DNA of 4,809 nt, from the IMG/VR virus record IMGVR_UViG_2660238600_000005. One strand, written 5' to 3'. Positions within the stretch are counted from its first letter, which is position 1. Every line of letters starts with the position of its first letter. Source of the stretch: a virus. Its lineage: Duplodnaviria; Heunggongvirae; Uroviricota; Caudoviricetes. This document shows, one piece after another, positions 1 to 4,639 of this stretch. The notes below the pieces were generated by a model, which ran no database searches, was not told where the DNA came from, and worked only from the letters and a program-made list of their open reading frames with translations. Position numbers and translations under genes: made by a program.

Positions 1-711
1 TTACGCCTTCTTTATATCCTCCATAATTCCAGAGTGGGACATATTTGGGACATTATCACCAAAAATGTCGTCTATTTTCCTCGCATGCTCTGTCAAATGA
101 TTAGGCGCAAGGTGAGCATACCTACGAACCATTTCTATGGACTCCCATCCGCCCATTTCCTGAAGCACTGATAATGGGACGCCTGACTGAATCAGCCAGC
201 TTGCCCAGGTGTGTCTGAGGTCATGGAAACGGAAATCTTCAATTCCTGCACGACGACAAGCTGATAGCCATGATGTCTTGCTGTCGATGCGCATCTTCCT
301 GACTGCAGGCGTTGATGTTCCATCTGCTCGCTTAGCCGCCTTGGTATGTACAAACACCCATTTGTGATGCTTGCCTATTTGATCACGCAACACTTTACAG
401 GCGGTATCGTTCAGCGCCACACCAATGGCGCGGTTTGATTTGCTCTCTTCTGGATTCACCCAGGCAACTCGTCGCTGCATGTCGATTTGTTGCCATTCCA
501 GATTTATGATGTTCGACTTTCTCAGACCAGTTGCCAGCGCAAACTTGACGACAGATTTCAGTGGTTCGGGGCACTCATCAATAAGGCGTTTTGCTTCCTC
601 CTTTTCCAGCCATCTGACTCGCTTGTTTCTGACCGCTGGTATCTTGATGACAGGCGCTTTTTCCAGCCACTTCCAGTCGCGTTCTGCAGCACGGAGAATG
701 GCCTTTATCAT
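1..711 (-). CDS. int: Tyrosine recombinase / phage integrase, catalytic domain only; N-terminal arm-binding and core-binding domains absent, so possibly a truncated remnant
   Basis: 236-aa ORF with ATG at 711-709 and TAA at 3-1. Tyrosine-recombinase active-site pattern is present: Arg in [12 protein letters not shown]-x-x-R in [15 protein letters not shown], and the Tyr in VRRYAHL. Reading the same frame upstream of the Met gives only 24 codons before a stop at 786-784, and no integrase-like N-terminus is seen in another minus frame. Confidence 0.85.
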
Positions 712-1386: not shown

Positions 1387-1724
1387 GCATAACTTATGGA
1401 TTATATGGAAAACTGGTAATTATGCTCTTTTCTTATGAAAATAAAGAGAAGTTTTCGCTGGCGTTTTATTTCTTCTGTTTTTTCTTGCGGGTTATTCTGA
1501 TTTGTTTTGATTTGATTTTTTCTGACAAAAGTAGGGAAAAAATATGTCGCAAGTACTTTCTGTCTTTACCTCCTAAATTACATTCTCTATCAAATGTTGC
1601 CATAGTTATGACCCCAGTTTTATATAGTGTTTCAGCAATTTTTCTGTAGTTTTTTTCTCGCAAAATTGAAGAGTTTTTCTTTGCTGTATTTTCAAGGCTA
1701 TCTCCTTGTGGTTTAAGACTATTT

Positions 1725-1778
1725 GGGCCAAAAAACGTTGTGGATACTGCTGCACTTGTTGTCCGTTTTTTTTGGCCC
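1725..1778. repeat. Imperfect ~54-bp palindrome (GGGCC-A6-CG / CG-T8-GGCCC arms around a 26-nt loop) in the AT-rich spacer between convergent gene blocks; candidate bidirectional terminator or protein-binding site
   Basis: Left arm GGGCCAAAAAACG (1725-1737) is complementary to right arm CGTTTTTTTTGGCCC (1764-1778) with two extra T. It lies 86 bp beyond the stop of the leftward Mnt-like gene and downstream of the rightward genes ending at 1386. Confidence 0.55.
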
Positions 1779-1863
1779 ATTTGGATAGTACTTGGGAGAG
1801 GCATGATTTTAATACGCATATAAATAACTCCTCTATCAATTGGATTTTGAGAAAATATTAACA

Positions 1864-2181
1864 TTAATCATGATTAAGGAGTAATTTTAAATCTTCCAAT
1901 AAAATTTGTTTAAACTCTTGTGTTCTATGATCGATATACAACGCAAGTTTGCTTGCATTATCTTCCAGGTCACGTATCTCTCTGTCACCTCGAATAAACC
2001 CAACTAAATTTAAACGTTTAGATAGTTCAGAACTTCCTTCTATGGCATCTTGGAGTATTTGAATGATTTCTGAATTCATTGAGCGCCCGTTTCGTTTGGC
2101 TCGTTCAGCTATAGTTTCACGCATCCCATCAGGGAAACGGAGGTTAAACTTATCGTAGTCTTTTACTTGTTTGTCAGCCAT
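1864..2181 (-). CDS. Mnt/Arc-family ribbon-helix-helix transcriptional repressor, 105 aa, with a C-terminal extension that could be a coiled-coil oligomerisation region
   Basis: N-terminus MADKQVKDYDKFNLRFPDGMRETIAERAKRNGRSMNSEIIQILQDAI matches the Arc/Mnt signature as I recall it (FNLRxP ... NGRSxNSE ... Q). Start chosen at ATG 2181-2179, preceded by a G-run; the track ORF extends to 2211 but the extra 10 residues have no ribosome-binding site and do not fit the family N-terminus. Stop TAA at 1866-1864. Confidence 0.8.
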   Translation of the reverse strand: MADKQVKDYDKFNLRFPDGMRETIAERAKRNGRSMNSEIIQILQDAIEGSSELSKRLNLVGFIRGDREIRDLEDNASKLALYIDHRTQEFKQILLEDLKLLLNHD

Positions 2182-2280
2182 TGGACCCCCCAAAAAAATG
2201 AATGGTGCCATATTGCCACATCAATTCAATGGTGGCATTATGGCCTCATGGTGTCATTGTGGCCTCATGAGGTTATGTCA
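2182..2280. promoter_or_regulatory. Divergent promoter/operator region between the Mnt-like and Arc-like genes
   Basis: Candidate rightward promoter: -35 TTGCCA (2213-2218), 17-nt spacer, -10 CATTAT (2236-2241). Direct repeats TGGCCTCATG at 2241-2250 and 2260-2269 (19-bp register). Perfect 10-bp palindrome CCTCATGAGG at 2263-2272 overlapping the ribosome-binding site of the rightward gene. Further repeats AATGGTG(C/G)CAT at 2200-2210 and 2228-2238. Confidence 0.5.
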
Positions 2281-2439
2281 ATGGAAAAGAAAGAGGTAAA
2301 AATTACCCTTCGCTATCCGCAAAAAGTGAAGGATGAATTCAAGCGAATTGCTCAGGAGGAAGGGATGTCTGAGAACGCAGCTATTGTTCAGGCGCTTGTA
2401 TGGGCATTGAAATTTAGAACACGGATACATGCTCGCTAG
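2281..2439 (+). CDS. Small ribbon-helix-helix (Arc/CopG-like) DNA-binding protein, 52 aa
   Basis: MEKKEVKITLRYPQKVKDEFKRIAQEEGMSENAAIVQALVWAL fits a beta-strand / helix / helix RHH pattern. Start ATG 2281 has GAGG (2269-2272) at 8-nt spacing. The 5' extension of the track ORF (from 2167) translates the operator region and is not accepted. Confidence 0.6.
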   Translation: MEKKEVKITLRYPQKVKDEFKRIAQEEGMSENAAIVQALVWALKFRTRIHAR

Positions 2440-2446
2440 AAACAGC

Positions 2447-2478
2447 GAAGCCCCACTGGCGGCAACCTTAGGGGCTTC
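2447..2478 (-). terminator. Hairpin in the arc-like/ant-like intergenic region; possible terminator of a leftward antisense RNA, by analogy with P22 sar
   Basis: GAAGCCCC (2447-2454) pairs with GGGGCTTC (2471-2478) around a 16-nt loop. On the minus strand the stem is followed by GCTGTTTCT (T-rich); on the plus strand there is no T-run. Confidence 0.3.
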
Positions 2479-2509
2479 TATCGAAAATAACCGCGAAGGA
2501 AATATCGAC

Positions 2510-3178
2510 ATGAGTATTGTAGCAACATCAGATCTGAACTTCCAAGGTGAAGCACTAGTGCCAGTGGCAAATATTGCCGGAATATGGCTAACTTCATCCA
2601 ACCTAGCAAGAGCACTGAAGTATTCGAATAGTCGCGCAGTCACGATGATTTACAACAAATATGCTGACGAATTTTCCAGTAGTATGACTAGAGTGCTTGA
2701 AGTCAGTACCTTAGAGAATGATGTCGAGGTACTTGATCTGAGTACCTCGAAAAGTACTCGAAACTTGAAGAAGAAAGTACGCGTTTTCTCTCTCCGCGGA
2801 GCCCATTTGATCGCCATGTTCGCCCGCACTCCTGTAGCCAAAGAGTTCCGCCGTTGGGTTCTGGATATTCTCGATCGAGAAGTTCAACAATCCCCAATCA
2901 TAAAACAATTCACTGATAACGAACTTTGCACACTTGCTTGGTTGTGGCGAGCTGGGGATGCGATGTTAACCGCCTGCCAGAACGTTACTCCTCTTCTTCA
3001 GGTTGCGGAGCATCGTGAAGCTGGTCGCTTCACTTCTATCGAGCAAGAATATCCCCAGATACTCAATAAGGCACAGGCAATCCTTGCCAGAGAAACGGCA
3101 CATGTAAAATTCCGGCCGTGGCAGGATGATAAGTGGAGTCGAGTTTTGCCGCATTTACGTTCGGATCGATTACAGTAG
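2510..3178 (+). CDS. Bro-N domain protein, antirepressor-like (Ant/Roi-type), 222 aa
   Basis: N-terminal region (FQGEALVPVANIAGIWLTSSNLARALKYSNSRAVTMIYNKYADEF ... VFSLRGAHLIAMFARTPVAKEFRRWVLDIL) matches the Bro-N pattern as I recall it, including the ...AK.FRRWV... motif. Start ATG 2510 has GAAGGA at about 9-nt spacing. The track ORF start at 2429 overlaps the upstream gene and lacks a ribosome-binding site. Stop TAG at 3176-3178. The C-terminal ~95 aa are unassigned. Confidence 0.8.
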   Translation: MSIVATSDLNFQGEALVPVANIAGIWLTSSNLARALKYSNSRAVTMIYNKYADEFSSSMTRVLEVSTLENDVEVLDLSTSKSTRNLKKKVRVFSLRGAHLIAMFARTPVAKEFRRWVLDILDREVQQSPIIKQFTDNELCTLAWLWRAGDAMLTACQNVTPLLQVAEHREAGRFTSIEQEYPQILNKAQAILARETAHVKFRPWQDDKWSRVLPHLRSDRLQ

Positions 3179-3241
3179 ATTCCAATTAACAATGAGAAAC
3201 ACATAGCCACCCCGTGGTATTGAAACCATATAATGTTGGAT

Positions 3242-3270
3242 TTGAAAACAGATCTTTTTCCATGTATTAA
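3242..3270 (+). promoter_or_regulatory. Candidate sigma70 promoter facing the 118-aa gene and nin region
   Basis: -35 TTGAAA (3242-3247), 17-nt spacer, -10 TATTAA (3265-3270) with TG immediately upstream. The spacer contains an imperfect palindrome centred on AGATCT. Confidence 0.3.
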
Positions 3271-3438
3271 TAACTACATCCCCGCGAGTGATTCAAAAAG
3301 GAGGGCCCAATTTTGTCCGAGTTTTTGTATTCCCCCGCATGCCGCTGCGGAGCACTACATCTGAGTGTCTGACTAGGGGATAAAATTAGACTGGATAGTG
3401 AGAAGAAAGTGGCGTGCTAGGCTGTGCCGAGTGCTACC

Positions 3439-3562
3439 AGTACACCCTGGGGGTGTGCAGCTTTCGCCGAGACTGTAGTGGGTATCGGTTAATGCACGAA
3501 AAACCGAGAGGTCAGACAACCAATTTGCCGTAGGATTGTTTCCGGTGCGATACCGGTGTACT
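3439..3562 (+). other. Nested long-range complementarity in an ORF-free region; candidate structured RNA/leader or DNA site of unknown function
   Basis: AGTACACC (3439-3446) is complementary to GGTGTACT (3555-3562), and GGTATCG (3481-3487) to CGATACC (3548-3554). The two 3' partners are contiguous, giving a 15-bp interrupted helix enclosing internal segments. No ORF of 60 aa or more on either strand between 3211 and 3639. Confidence 0.25.
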
Positions 3563-3639
3563 AACTGAAAGCAATGCGAAAAAGCATAAACTCGGTCCTT
3601 CAGTCGCCCTACACACTATTTACTAAGAAGGGCTAAAGC

Positions 3640-3996
3640 ATGGATACAATTATCACATGGATGGGAGATCGTCTGTTGGGGTGGATAACAAACAAATCCG
3701 ATCTGCGGCAGAGGGCAATCACTGGATTAACTCCTGCGATTTGTTCAACAATTTTATATACTGAAAAATTAAAACGTGGTGAGCCTAATAACCCAAACGA
3801 AGAAGAAAAACTTTATAGGCTTTGGTATGAAGCGTCTTCCCAAGTCGTAGACTTTGATCGAGAGCTGGCTAAAAGATGTTTAGATAAATCAGAATATTGG
3901 CTTCATTCTGAATTATATAGCCCTGAGAAAGTTGAAGAGCTAAACATTTCTTTGGTTGGTATGAAGGCAACGCTTGAAGGAATAAAGCACAATTAA
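3640..3996 (+). CDS. Hypothetical protein, 118 aa; orphan accessory (moron-like) gene
   Basis: ATG 3640 has GAAGG (3628-3632) at 7-nt spacing. The ORF is visibly more AT-rich than its flanks. No recognisable motif. Confidence 0.6.
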   Translation: MDTIITWMGDRLLGWITNKSDLRQRAITGLTPAICSTILYTEKLKRGEPNNPNEEEKLYRLWYEASSQVVDFDRELAKRCLDKSEYWLHSELYSPEKVEELNISLVGMKATLEGIKHN

Positions 3997-4085
3997 AACC
4001 TTTGATTTGCGATAATCAACTCGCCATAATCATGTCATCGGAGCCTGAACAACTCCGGTGACTTCTGCGCTAAACGGGGACGTTT

Positions 4086-4187
4086 ATGCGCACACACAAT
4101 CCAAACTCTCTTCTCCCTCCACAGATGCAGAAATGCACCTGCGATATATTGTATCCAGCGTTTCACCTCTACGGAGGTGAAGCGTGA
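4086..4187 (+). CDS. 33-aa micro-ORF coupled to the NinB-family gene; possibly equivalent to ylcH, the small ORF that precedes ybcN in DLP12-type prophages
   Basis: ATG 4086 has GGGGA at 5-nt spacing. Peptide [33 protein letters not shown]. Its TGA (4185-4187) overlaps the GTG start of the next gene (GTGA). The ylcH assignment rests on length and position from memory, not on a sequence match. Confidence 0.4.
4161..4182 (+). promoter_or_regulatory. Hairpin sequestering the NinB-family gene's Shine-Dalgarno; likely translational-coupling element
   Basis: CACCTC (4164-4169) pairs with GAGGTG (4174-4179) around loop TACG, extendable by T-A pairs to 8-9 bp. GGAGG at 4173-4177 lies in the 3' arm, and GTG 4184 follows. 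Confidence 0.35.
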
Positions 4188-4639
4188 ACCTACCACAAGA
4201 TGGCATCAAACTGCATCGCGGTAACTTCATCGCTATCGGCCAGCAGATCCAGCCTTATCTGGAGAACGGAAAATGCTTTCGCATGGTGCTTAAACCGTGG
4301 CGTGAGAAACGCAGTCTTTCCCAGAATGCACTCAGCCACATGTGGTACAGCGAAATCAGTGAATACCTCATCAGCAGGGGTAAAACGTTCGCTACTGCAG
4401 CATGGGTAAAAGATGCTCTCAAACACACATACCTCGGTTATGAAAGCAAAGAACTGGTTGATGTCGTAACCGGTGAAATCACTACTATCCAGTCGTTACG
4501 CCATACCTCCGATCTTGATGCCGGAGAGATGTATGTCTTCCTCTGTAAGGTTGAAGCCTGGGCGATGAATATTGGCTGCCACCTGACTATTCCGCAGAGC
4601 TGCGAGTTCCAGCAGCTCCGCGACAAGCAGGAGGCGTAA
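4184..4639 (+). CDS. ninB: NinB/YbcN-family phage recombination protein, 151 aa
   Basis: GTG start at 4184 with GGAGG upstream. Contains the ...[24 protein letters not shown]... segment with the S-x-x-Q-N motif I associate with the NinB family; length and position immediately before ninE match DLP12 ybcN. Stop TAA at 4637-4639. Confidence 0.88.

Follow-up and report, generated by a model that had tools for sequence, protein, structure and literature searches.

A probable P22-type immunity-I module, carrying a Bro-N antirepressor-like protein, in a DLP12-type defective prophage of Escherichia coli

The 4,809-nucleotide stretch of DNA analysed here (the window) belongs to a defective E. coli prophage of the DLP12 type at the argU tRNA gene. 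Between ren and ninB/ybcN it contains three open reading frames, at 1864-2181 on the minus strand and at 2281-2439 and 2510-3178 on the plus strand. These are the coordinates and orientations given in the first-pass annotation, which also described the surroundings as a degraded prophage beside a nin region, a description borne out by Pfam and by the RefSeq annotation. The three genes had been likened to the P22 immI region (mnt leftward, arc and ant rightward), and gene order, orientation, protein families and spacing all agree with this likeness. A fourth component was overlooked at that stage, namely a sar-like antisense RNA at approximately 2436-2509 on the minus strand. The match to immI is stronger than could be known at first pass because a sar homologue and its candidate promoter lie at the P22 positions.

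The leftward gene (1864-2181, minus strand) encodes an Mnt-type ribbon-helix-helix (RHH) repressor of 105 amino acids, longer than the 83 residues of P22 Mnt, as had been noted. Its proposed membership in the Arc/Mnt family is upheld by a match to Pfam Arc (PF03869; E=5.2e-20, 71.5 bits compared to a cutoff of 20.4). The protein is 47% identical to residues 2-50 of P22 Mnt over 49 amino acids (BLASTP, E=1e-14), and its top sequence match in the PDB is 1mnt, which is P22 Mnt. The N-terminal Arc/Mnt DNA-binding domain is joined to a different, helical C-terminal half, in which AlphaFold2 predicts one long helix at residues 72-104 (pLDDT 85-90). This half is unrelated to the Mnt tetramerisation domain PF11423, which Pfam detects in P22 Mnt and not in the window protein. 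The C-termini of Mnt-like proteins are variable across the family, and the start at 2181 is consistent with the homologues.

Downstream of the mnt-like gene and co-oriented with it, the ORF list and RefSeq place a 117-amino-acid ORFan (1466-1819, minus strand) with a GC content of 30-37%, compared to approximately 51% in the flanks. Only four clusters among 1.84 billion representatives are related to it, one of them full-length at 52% identity. P22 immI likewise has a small ORF downstream of mnt, and the ORFan, which occupies the position of P22 orf59a, could be prophage-expressed cargo; its position suggests that it may belong to the module. We considered whether the leftward RHH protein and this ORF instead constitute a type II toxin-antitoxin pair, or a stability pair, that plays no part in controlling the rightward genes. 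Antitoxins are commonly RHH proteins, the Mnt-like protein has weaker Pfam matches to FitA-like_RHH and HicB, some sources name its relatives "plasmid stability protein", and the ORF, which is co-oriented, follows 44 nt downstream of the mnt-like gene. Nevertheless, the best match of the RHH protein is Mnt itself, the ORF matches no toxin, defence or other family in Pfam, PHROG or PADLOC, and the gene that follows mnt-like varies among cassettes while the arc-sar-ant side is constant and the RHH gene invariably points away from arc-ant. A toxin-antitoxin pair is therefore very improbable. A defence-system or toxin role was likewise rejected for this ORF and for ORF 3640-3996, neither of which has a PADLOC or Pfam match.

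The first gene of the rightward operon (2281-2439, plus strand) encodes an Arc-type RHH repressor of 52 amino acids. The small RHH protein proposed at this position scores 22.0 bits against Pfam Arc (cutoff 20.4), shares 36% identity with P22 Arc over 45 amino acids, matches Arc repressor entries in the PDB, and belongs with PHROG 582, "Arc-like repressor" (4e-9). GAGG lies 8 nt ahead of its ATG at 2281, and the distance from the arc stop codon to the ant ATG is 70 nt, compared to 68 nt in P22.

Between the start codons of the mnt-like and arc-like genes lies a divergent control region of 99 bp (2182-2280), compared to 90 bp in P22 immI. The motif TGGTGNCA occurs three times in the whole window, and all three copies are inside this region. 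The region contains three operator-like units, read on the plus strand. U1 (TGGTGCCATATTGCCACA, 2203-2220; repeat families D4 and I2) overlaps the -35 element of a candidate Pant and is kept in the relatives L016 and L092 and in Stx phage WGPS8. U2 (TGGTGGCATTATGGCCTCA, 2230-2248; repeat family D1) overlaps the candidate Pant -10 element. U3 (TGGTGTCATTGTGGCCTCA, 2249-2267) is in tandem to U2, downstream of the candidate Pant start, and occupies the place of Omnt in P22. U2 and U3 are exact matches to a 19-nt pattern for which 0.02 matches would be expected in the window, a pattern built from these same sites. U1 and U3 may function as operators; P22 has two dissimilar operators (Oarc and Omnt) in place of three similar 19-bp units. 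We were unable to assign the units to the Mnt-like or the Arc-like protein by comparing the window, WGPS8 and SPN3UB, whose modules agree in one repressor subtype and differ in the second, as the differences among them do not discriminate.

The candidate Pant (2213-2241, plus strand), identified by promoter scan, consists of TTGCCA, a 17-nt spacer and CATTAT with an extended TG. Its -35 element is 297 nt from the ant ATG, compared to 298 nt for the annotated Pant of P22, and the end of its -10 element is 40 nt from the arc ATG in both. In 17 of 19 modules tested, the top promoter-like site lies at -297 to -326. On the opposite strand, a candidate Pmnt (2211-2238, minus strand; ATGCCA, 17-nt spacer, CAATAT with TG) was read by eye from a 48-bp dyad at 2202-2249 (I2); its agreement with the consensus is weak (4/6 and 3/6) and falls under the promoter-scan threshold. 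The two candidates would overlap such that the -35 element of each lies over the -10 element of the other, a P22-like geometry. The overlapping divergent promoters of P22 immI would have their counterparts in these candidates, at equal distance from arc and ant. LexA control of the module was rejected because there is no LexA box nearby; the only two sites with one mismatch (809 and 938) are no more than expected by chance.

The sar-type antisense RNA (2436-2509, minus strand) comprises two stem-loops. Rfam RF00262 matches it at 2444-2508 with a score of 34 bits (whole-window E=3.8e-4), under the gathering score of 43, and the sar homologue of SPN3UB reaches 48 bits, over that score; the variant in the window is missed by current Rfam thresholds. 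Our own covariance model, R1, gives the window sar 92.8 bits, and its fold has a minimum free energy of -25.7 kcal/mol (z=-2.95). Complementarity to the ant ribosome-binding site lies in the 5' part of the RNA, which stops beside the ant ATG, and the 3' stem-loop is predicted to be a terminator in the arc-ant spacer. In a set of 25 distinct sequences, pairing holds for 95.9% of cells, compared to 27-58% for slid controls, and compensatory double changes are found in nine stem pairs, a count from an alignment that was fitted to the model itself.

A candidate Psar (2516-2545, minus strand; TTGGAA, 18-nt spacer, TACAAT with TG), a sigma-70-like site found by promoter scan, lies within the first codons of ant. 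Its -10 element ends 6 nt inside ant, the same offset as that of P22 Psar (15097-15125), and both hexamers are positionally conserved in five distinct family sequences and P22. The DNA of sar and Psar has 82% mean column identity to that of P22, even though the N-terminal domains of the Ant proteins are unrelated.

The third gene (2510-3178, plus strand) encodes an antirepressor-like protein of 222 amino acids. The predicted Bro-N domain (nucleotides ~2582-2869) is recovered as PF02498 (E=7.6e-9, 36.5 bits compared to a cutoff of 25.6), with a conserved core RVFSLRGAHLIAMF..AKEFRRWVLDILDRE. The C-terminal domain of about 95 amino acids, initially described as unassigned, is P22_AR_C (PF10548, E=1.8e-16; nucleotides ~2903-3109), a domain in common with P22 Ant, to which the C-terminal ~97 amino acids align. 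The protein belongs with PHROG 245, "anti-repressor Ant" (1.9e-48), and is 93.7% identical to its counterpart in Escherichia phage PhiR5_1. In P22 Ant the N-terminal domain is P22_AR_N, which Pfam does not detect in the window protein, where Bro-N takes its place. AlphaFold2 models the Bro-N domain confidently and the C-terminal domain as helical with lower confidence. A sequence search of solved structures gave nothing at E<=1, and a Foldseek search of the model against the PDB gave nothing at E<0.1; a resemblance to DdrC in the Foldseek results is weak and was not considered meaningful.

Only the P22-type Ant, with P22_AR_N, is an experimentally established antirepressor, and for the Bro-N form this activity is predicted by analogy. 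An alternative interpretation is that an immI-like front end here drives a protein that merely shares a domain with P22 Ant and acts as a non-antirepressor regulator or other "Bro network" effector, such as a DNA-binding regulator, a satellite derepressor, a host-takeover factor or an anti-defence factor. Consistent with this, the N-terminal domain is unlike that of P22 Ant, Bro-N proteins form a domain-swapping network with varied partners (PMC10111431), and the model resembles no solved structure. We consider this alternative unlikely, given that the P22_AR_C domain shared with P22 Ant is a significant match, that in Stx phages the same mnt-arc-sar front end is coupled to an authentic P22-type Ant, and that close homologues of the window protein lie behind the C4 antisense RNA, another classical form of antirepressor control. 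The matched PHROG families are also labelled anti-repressor, although this is annotation only.

RefSeq starts the ant gene at an ATG at 2429, giving a protein of 249 amino acids with an in-frame upstream extension of 27 codons (2429-2509, plus strand). This ATG overlaps the last codons of arc, and 22 of 26 distinct modules have an ATG at -27 or -28 codons, whereas P22 has none. Conservation of the extension is confined to the parts that specify the sar terminator stem and the ant ribosome-binding site, and C4-controlled Ant homologues lack it. It is probably not part of the conserved protein, with the RefSeq start over-extended by 27 codons; the start at 2510 chosen in the first-pass annotation is the better supported, and the 249-amino-acid form was judged less likely than the 222-amino-acid form. 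A further reading, to which we give little credence, is that the upstream ATG is a second, arc-coupled start, producing a long Ant isoform or a leader that modulates sar, and that the control system is an exchangeable front end. Were this true, the second start would add a layer of control lacking in P22. The Bro-N/P22_AR_C effector family does sit behind two unrelated control systems, the P22-type Mnt/Arc/sar and the P1-type C4 RNA. Beyond the effector gene, no terminator-like hairpin was found after ant, the 461-bp spacer at 3179-3640 has no structured RNA matching Rfam, and the folding of 3360-3640 is no better than that of shuffled sequences on either strand.

With homology of all four parts, conserved spacing, RNA covariation and recurrence of the cassette demonstrated, we consider it likely that the segment at approximately 1864-3178 is an intact homologue of the immunity-I region ("ant moron") of phage P22. 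The two have in common gene order and orientation, the Mnt- and Arc-type RHH proteins, the offsets of sar and Psar, and the P22_AR_C domain. They differ, beyond their operators and the domains already described, in location: the window module is in a lambda-type nin region (ren-ninB), compared to the late operon beside the tailspike gene in P22.

The arrangement of Mnt-like (minus), Arc-like (plus), sar (minus) and Bro-N/P22_AR_C Ant (plus) genes is common to PhiR5_1, SPN3UB and the Klebsiella phages ST11-VIM1phi8.1 and KP12. In PhiR5_1 the cassette again occupies the ren-ninB site, with Mnt and Ant proteins 99% and 94% identical to those of the window. In Salmonella phage SPN3UB, where the cassette is gp19-gp21, and in Klebsiella phage ST11-VIM1phi8.1, it is flanked by the major tail gene and the tape-measure gene. 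These cassettes and the window vary in operator sequence and in the C-terminus of Mnt. PhiR5_1, SPN3UB and the Klebsiella phages carry their own repressor gene, which the prophage in the window lacks. A different combination is found in O157:H7 Stx-converting phages such as Stx2a_WGPS8, 2851 and YYZ-2008, in which the Mnt-like RHH domain is 76% identical to that of the window, the control-region repeat units are near-identical, and sar and an Arc-like gene are present. However, their Arc-like protein is of another subtype, their Ant is P22-type (P22_AR_N and P22_AR_C, ~300 amino acids), and the module is located among tail genes.

Other antirepressor systems share fewer features with the window. 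In P1/P7-type immI the effector is homologous, and the C4/isrK-controlled Ants of IdasGreatGrand, PhiR26_1, Aaphi23 and phiSTEC1589 are 34-73% identical to that of the window, but these systems have neither RHH repressors nor sar; conversely, no C4 or isrK RNA matched the window at E<=1 in Rfam. The LexA-controlled antirepressors of Gifsy and N15 (PMC3121763) also act in trans and lie outside the immunity region, downstream of replication genes, but they are small, unrelated proteins under LexA rather than under RHH repressors and an antisense RNA.

The first-pass annotation had called such an arrangement unusual, whereas the cassette is common to several phage genomes and is often annotated as Arc-like/Arc-like/Ant. 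In 42 of 88 related ant sources, R1 places a sar RNA directly against the ant ATG; a divergent pair of RHH genes (minus and plus) accompanies it in 38 of these 42, and an RHH gene is absent from 45 of the 46 sources without sar. The Ant family comprises 3,912 protein clusters at E<=1e-10. Given its presence in PhiR5_1, SPN3UB, Klebsiella phages and O157 Stx phages, the cassette is a mobile "ant moron" that is common and has been annotated before. The module is of a well-known phage kind with a swapped effector domain, and not a new system. In the part of the literature that was covered, we found neither this Bro-N form nor an immI within a nin region described.

The host prophage lacks its own immunity region and replication-initiation genes. 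With the repressor region lost, the module is orphaned and could act only on co-resident prophages, and the earlier suggestion that it might control induction of this prophage does not hold. The full module is retained at this site in only 5 of 5,426 complete E. coli genomes; listed genomes without it match only from approximately position 2868 of the window onward. In the DLP12-type prophages that we examined, the annotated 107-amino-acid "P22AR C-terminal domain-containing protein" corresponds to a fragment of this ant gene. The rarity of the full module and the missing immunity and replication genes make it possible, though we do not favour it, that the module is an inert relic, intact through recent acquisition and neither expressed nor selected in a grounded prophage. 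On the other hand, no ORF, candidate promoter or RNA of the module is disrupted, and identity to the PhiR5_1 counterparts is 94-100%. This interpretation concerns present use rather than identity, and is compatible with homology to P22 immI.

Earlier work describes both the circuit of P22 and the name "ant moron" (PMC2629481), and P22 Ant is active against the C2, L, lambda and 21 repressors (PMC3121763). By homology with P22, the Mnt-type repressor, expressed leftward from a weak promoter, would in a lysogen occupy the repeated 19-bp sites in the 99-bp region and shut off the strong rightward Pant, which overlaps the repressor gene's own promoter. Upon infection or loss of the Mnt-like protein, Pant would fire and the 52-amino-acid Arc-type repressor and the antirepressor would be transcribed, after which the Arc-like protein would close both promoters. 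Translation of ant may be limited by the sar-type RNA of ~70 nt, transcribed leftward from the promoter inside ant and pairing with the ant ribosome-binding site. The Ant protein, combining Bro-N with the P22 antirepressor C-terminal domain, would inactivate prophage repressors of the cI/C2 type by binding, without cleavage. As an orphan, the module may be silenced by its Mnt-like repressor or may act in trans on other resident lambdoid prophages. Promoter activity, the pairing of each protein with its sites, and the activity and targets of the antirepressor are all predicted here by analogy.

The understanding of such circuits is unchanged by the present results. They show that the complete P22 immI circuit, including its antisense RNA, travels as a cassette with interchangeable Ant N-terminal domains, and that this cassette is found at varied positions in temperate phages, both lambdoid and non-lambdoid, of E. 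coli, Salmonella and Klebsiella. Coupling of prophage induction has been proposed for P22 Ant and shown for the Gifsy antirepressors. Expression of the orphan antirepressor, should it occur, could likewise couple the induction of co-resident prophages.

Homology, spacing, RNA covariation and recurrence, all shown here, make the cassette at 1864-3178 most probably a module of the phage P22 immI type, and the overall interpretation given in the first-pass annotation was correct; the module is of an ordinary, already annotated phage kind. All three open reading frames on which that interpretation was built were found in place. The leftward gene (1864-2181, minus strand) encodes a 105-aa Mnt-like RHH protein (Pfam Arc, 5.2e-20) that shares 47% identity with P22 Mnt over the latter's DNA-binding half, including the helix NGRSMNSE(I/L)(I/L)QI(L/V)QDA, and its closest solved relative is Mnt (PDB entry 1mnt). 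The rightward gene (2281-2439, plus strand) encodes a 52-aa Arc-like protein that exceeds the cutoff of the Pfam Arc profile; it shares 36% identity with P22 Arc, and its PDB matches are Arc entries. Across the family, Mnt-like proteins have the RHH domain in common and very different C-terminal halves. The P22 tetramerization domain PF11423 is absent from the window protein, in which AlphaFold2 models residues 72-104 as a single long, confident helix, a prediction that fits, without proving, a role in oligomerization.

The C-terminal domain of the Bro-N protein had been described as unassigned, but the Ant-like protein (2510-3178, plus strand) combines Bro-N (7.6e-9) with a C-terminal P22_AR_C domain (1.8e-16). 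P22 Ant consists of P22_AR_N and P22_AR_C; therefore, the two proteins have the C-domain in common and differ in the N-domain, and their BLASTP alignment is limited to the last ~97 residues. In the AlphaFold2 model, Bro-N is confident, residues 68-86 form a disordered, window-specific insertion, and the C-domain is helical with lower confidence. No solved structures resembling the protein or its model were found.

The sole Rfam match in our scan of the window is a sar-type RNA (RF00262; 2444-2508, minus strand), located in the 70 nt that separate the arc-like stop codon from the ATG at 2510. Its score of 34 bits (E=3.8e-4 over the whole window) is less than the family gathering score of 43. 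P22 sar occupies the same place (15021-15090, with the ant ATG at 15091). The predicted fold of the window sar has two hairpins (-25.7 kcal/mol, z=-2.95). Its candidate sigma-70-like promoter, Psar (2545-2516, minus strand), consists of TTGGAA, an 18-nt spacer, and TACAAT with TG; the -10 element ends 6 nt inside ant, an offset identical to that of P22 Psar (15125-15097). Over sar and Psar, mean column identity between the window family and P22 DNA is 82%, far above that of the flanking genes.

RefSeq starts ant at 2429, an in-frame ATG that overlaps the end of arc. Of 26 distinct modules, 22 have such an ATG 27-28 codons 5' of the start that abuts sar, and P22 does not. The position of sar and the conservation across sar and Psar place the start instead at 2510, which is preceded by GAAGGA. 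Because the extension peptide (2429-2509) is conserved only where its DNA also specifies RNA elements, namely the terminator stem of sar and the RBS of ant, and is absent from homologues under C4 control, we favor the short protein over the RefSeq form.

Ant-like homologues were gathered from phage records and viral contigs, and 88 sources were scanned with a covariance model made from five sar regions. The model found sar in 42 sources, always on the strand opposite to ant and with its end adjoining the ant ATG. In 38 of these 42, the minus strand carries a divergent RHH gene and the plus strand a small one whose end lies 71-77 nt ahead of ant. By comparison, 45 of the 46 sources without sar have no RHH gene; the exception, L088, has the RHH pair with no sar match at E<=0.01. 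Among 25 distinct sar sequences, 95.9% of pair cells hold standard pairs, compared to 27-58% when partners are slid. Both-side changes occur in 9 of 21 pairs in an alignment fitted to the model, which favors structure; compensatory changes are nonetheless visible by eye, as where A-U in one of the window and strain S1-KEN-04-A corresponds to G-C in the other. Ant homologues without sar have P1-type C4/isrK antisense RNAs upstream instead. For example, upstream of close homologues in IdasGreatGrand, PhiR26_1, Aaphi23, and phiSTEC1589 are C4 antisense RNA, isrK, and c4-a1b1 elements (L007 2754-2951, L008 2754-2951, L010 2707-2953, and L011 1828-2023), a P1/P7-type control in place of the Mnt/Arc/sar control of the window.

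The mnt-like and arc-like start codons are 99 bp apart, compared to 90 in P22. Between them, a candidate arc-ant promoter, Pant (2213-2241, plus strand), is a good match, with TTGCCA, a 17-nt spacer, and TG-extended CATTAT. The end of its -10 element lies 40 nt from the arc ATG in both the window and P22, and its -35 element lies 297 nt from the ant ATG, compared to 298 in P22; in 17 of the 19 modules examined, the best promoter-like site lay between -297 and -326. A 48-bp imperfect dyad (2202-2249) implies a weaker leftward candidate promoter whose -35 lies over the rightward -10 and vice versa, which is the Pant/Pmnt geometry of P22 as read in the window only by eye. Every TGGTGNCA motif in the window falls among three 19-bp units, at 2203 (TGGTGCCATATTGCCACA), 2230 (TGGTGGCATTATGGCCTCA), and 2249 (TGGTGTCATTGTGGCCTCA), which are conserved in diverged relatives and O157 Stx phages and are likely operators. 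The units resemble one another, whereas P22 Oarc and Omnt are distinct, and our attempt to assign them to the Mnt-like or Arc-like repressor did not separate the sites.

The window comes from an E. coli lambdoid prophage, defective and of the DLP12 type, that sits beside the argU tRNA-Arg gene. Strain 99COLEC has the same DNA (99.9% identity across 1400-4100) between intD/ren and ybcN-ninE-ybcO-rusA-Q, and among complete genomes of the collection there was no single-piece, end-to-end match to the window, the best being 91% in two pieces. From left to right, the window has the 3' part of an integrase gene (1-711, minus strand), the final 105 codons of a lambda P-type gene (779-1096), and ren (1093-1386); NinB/YbcN (4184-4639) and then NinE lie to the right of the module. 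BLAST piece boundaries place the junction of the 5'-truncated integrase gene with the P-type codons near 741/742, and thus the prophage no longer has xis, O, or the cI/cro immunity region. Downstream of mnt-like is an AT-rich 117-aa ORFan (1466-1819, minus strand; GC 30-37%) with no family match; a search of 1.84 billion representatives gave just four related clusters, of which one is full-length (52% identity). Because the gene at this position varies from cassette to cassette, the ORFan may be variable cargo expressed from the prophage. On the other side, a 118-aa protein that is conserved but of unknown function (3640-3996, plus strand; PHROG 12412, 3e-69), without a match in Pfam and PADLOC searches, lies 3' of ant across a 461-bp spacer both here and in IdasGreatGrand. 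Within the spacer there is neither an ORF of at least 60 aa nor an Rfam match, nor any excess of structure.

The entire region is present at this site in only 5 of 5,426 complete E. coli genomes. Phage PhiR5_1 has the cassette at the same ren-ninB position (Mnt-like 99% and Ant 94% identical), and a further E. coli prophage and Klebsiella phage KP12 also carry it. Tail genes surround it in Salmonella phage SPN3UB, where RefSeq names the genes Arc-like regulator, Arc-like repressor, and anti-repressor Ant, and in Klebsiella phage ST11-VIM1phi8.1. Separately, PhiR5_1 has a strong STnc100 sRNA family match downstream of Q (L003 10046-10251, 143 bits). At E<=1e-10 the Ant family comprises 3,912 clusters, which carry the names P22AR C-terminal domain-containing protein or BRO family protein. 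Among the matches listed, partial DLP12-type matches begin at ~2868 (L002 7988-9233), downstream of emrE-ylcJ-ybcK, a breakpoint that falls where the Bro-N domain ends and at the conserved RRWVLDILDRE motif. The 107-aa "P22AR C-terminal domain-containing protein" of those prophages is 94% identical to Ant residues 125-222, and is therefore an ant fragment without the Bro-N domain. The cassette and its relatives are the "ant moron" of Casjens and colleagues (PMC2629481) in other insertion sites; in the literature searched, we found no description of the Bro-N form or the nin-region location.

O157 Stx phages have the same front end with an Ant of P22 type. The mnt-like N-terminus and control region (2044-2263) match ~270 E. 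coli genomes at ~84% identity, many of them O157:H7 among the matches listed. In Stx2a phage WGPS8 (L091 2226-3821), the repeat units are near-identical to those of the window and sar is present, and Ant is of the P22_AR_N type. Cross-regulation between Stx-phage and window-type modules is conceivable.

By homology with P22, from which we infer binding sites, promoter activity, and antirepressor activity, the Mnt-like protein would hold Pant off in the lysogen. Firing of Pant would produce a burst of Arc and Ant, Arc would then shut both promoters, sar would block translation of ant, and Ant would inactivate cI-type repressors. Since the prophage is without a repressor of its own, the module can matter only in trans, a mode of action that has been suggested for P22 Ant and demonstrated for the antirepressors of Gifsy phages (PMC3121763).
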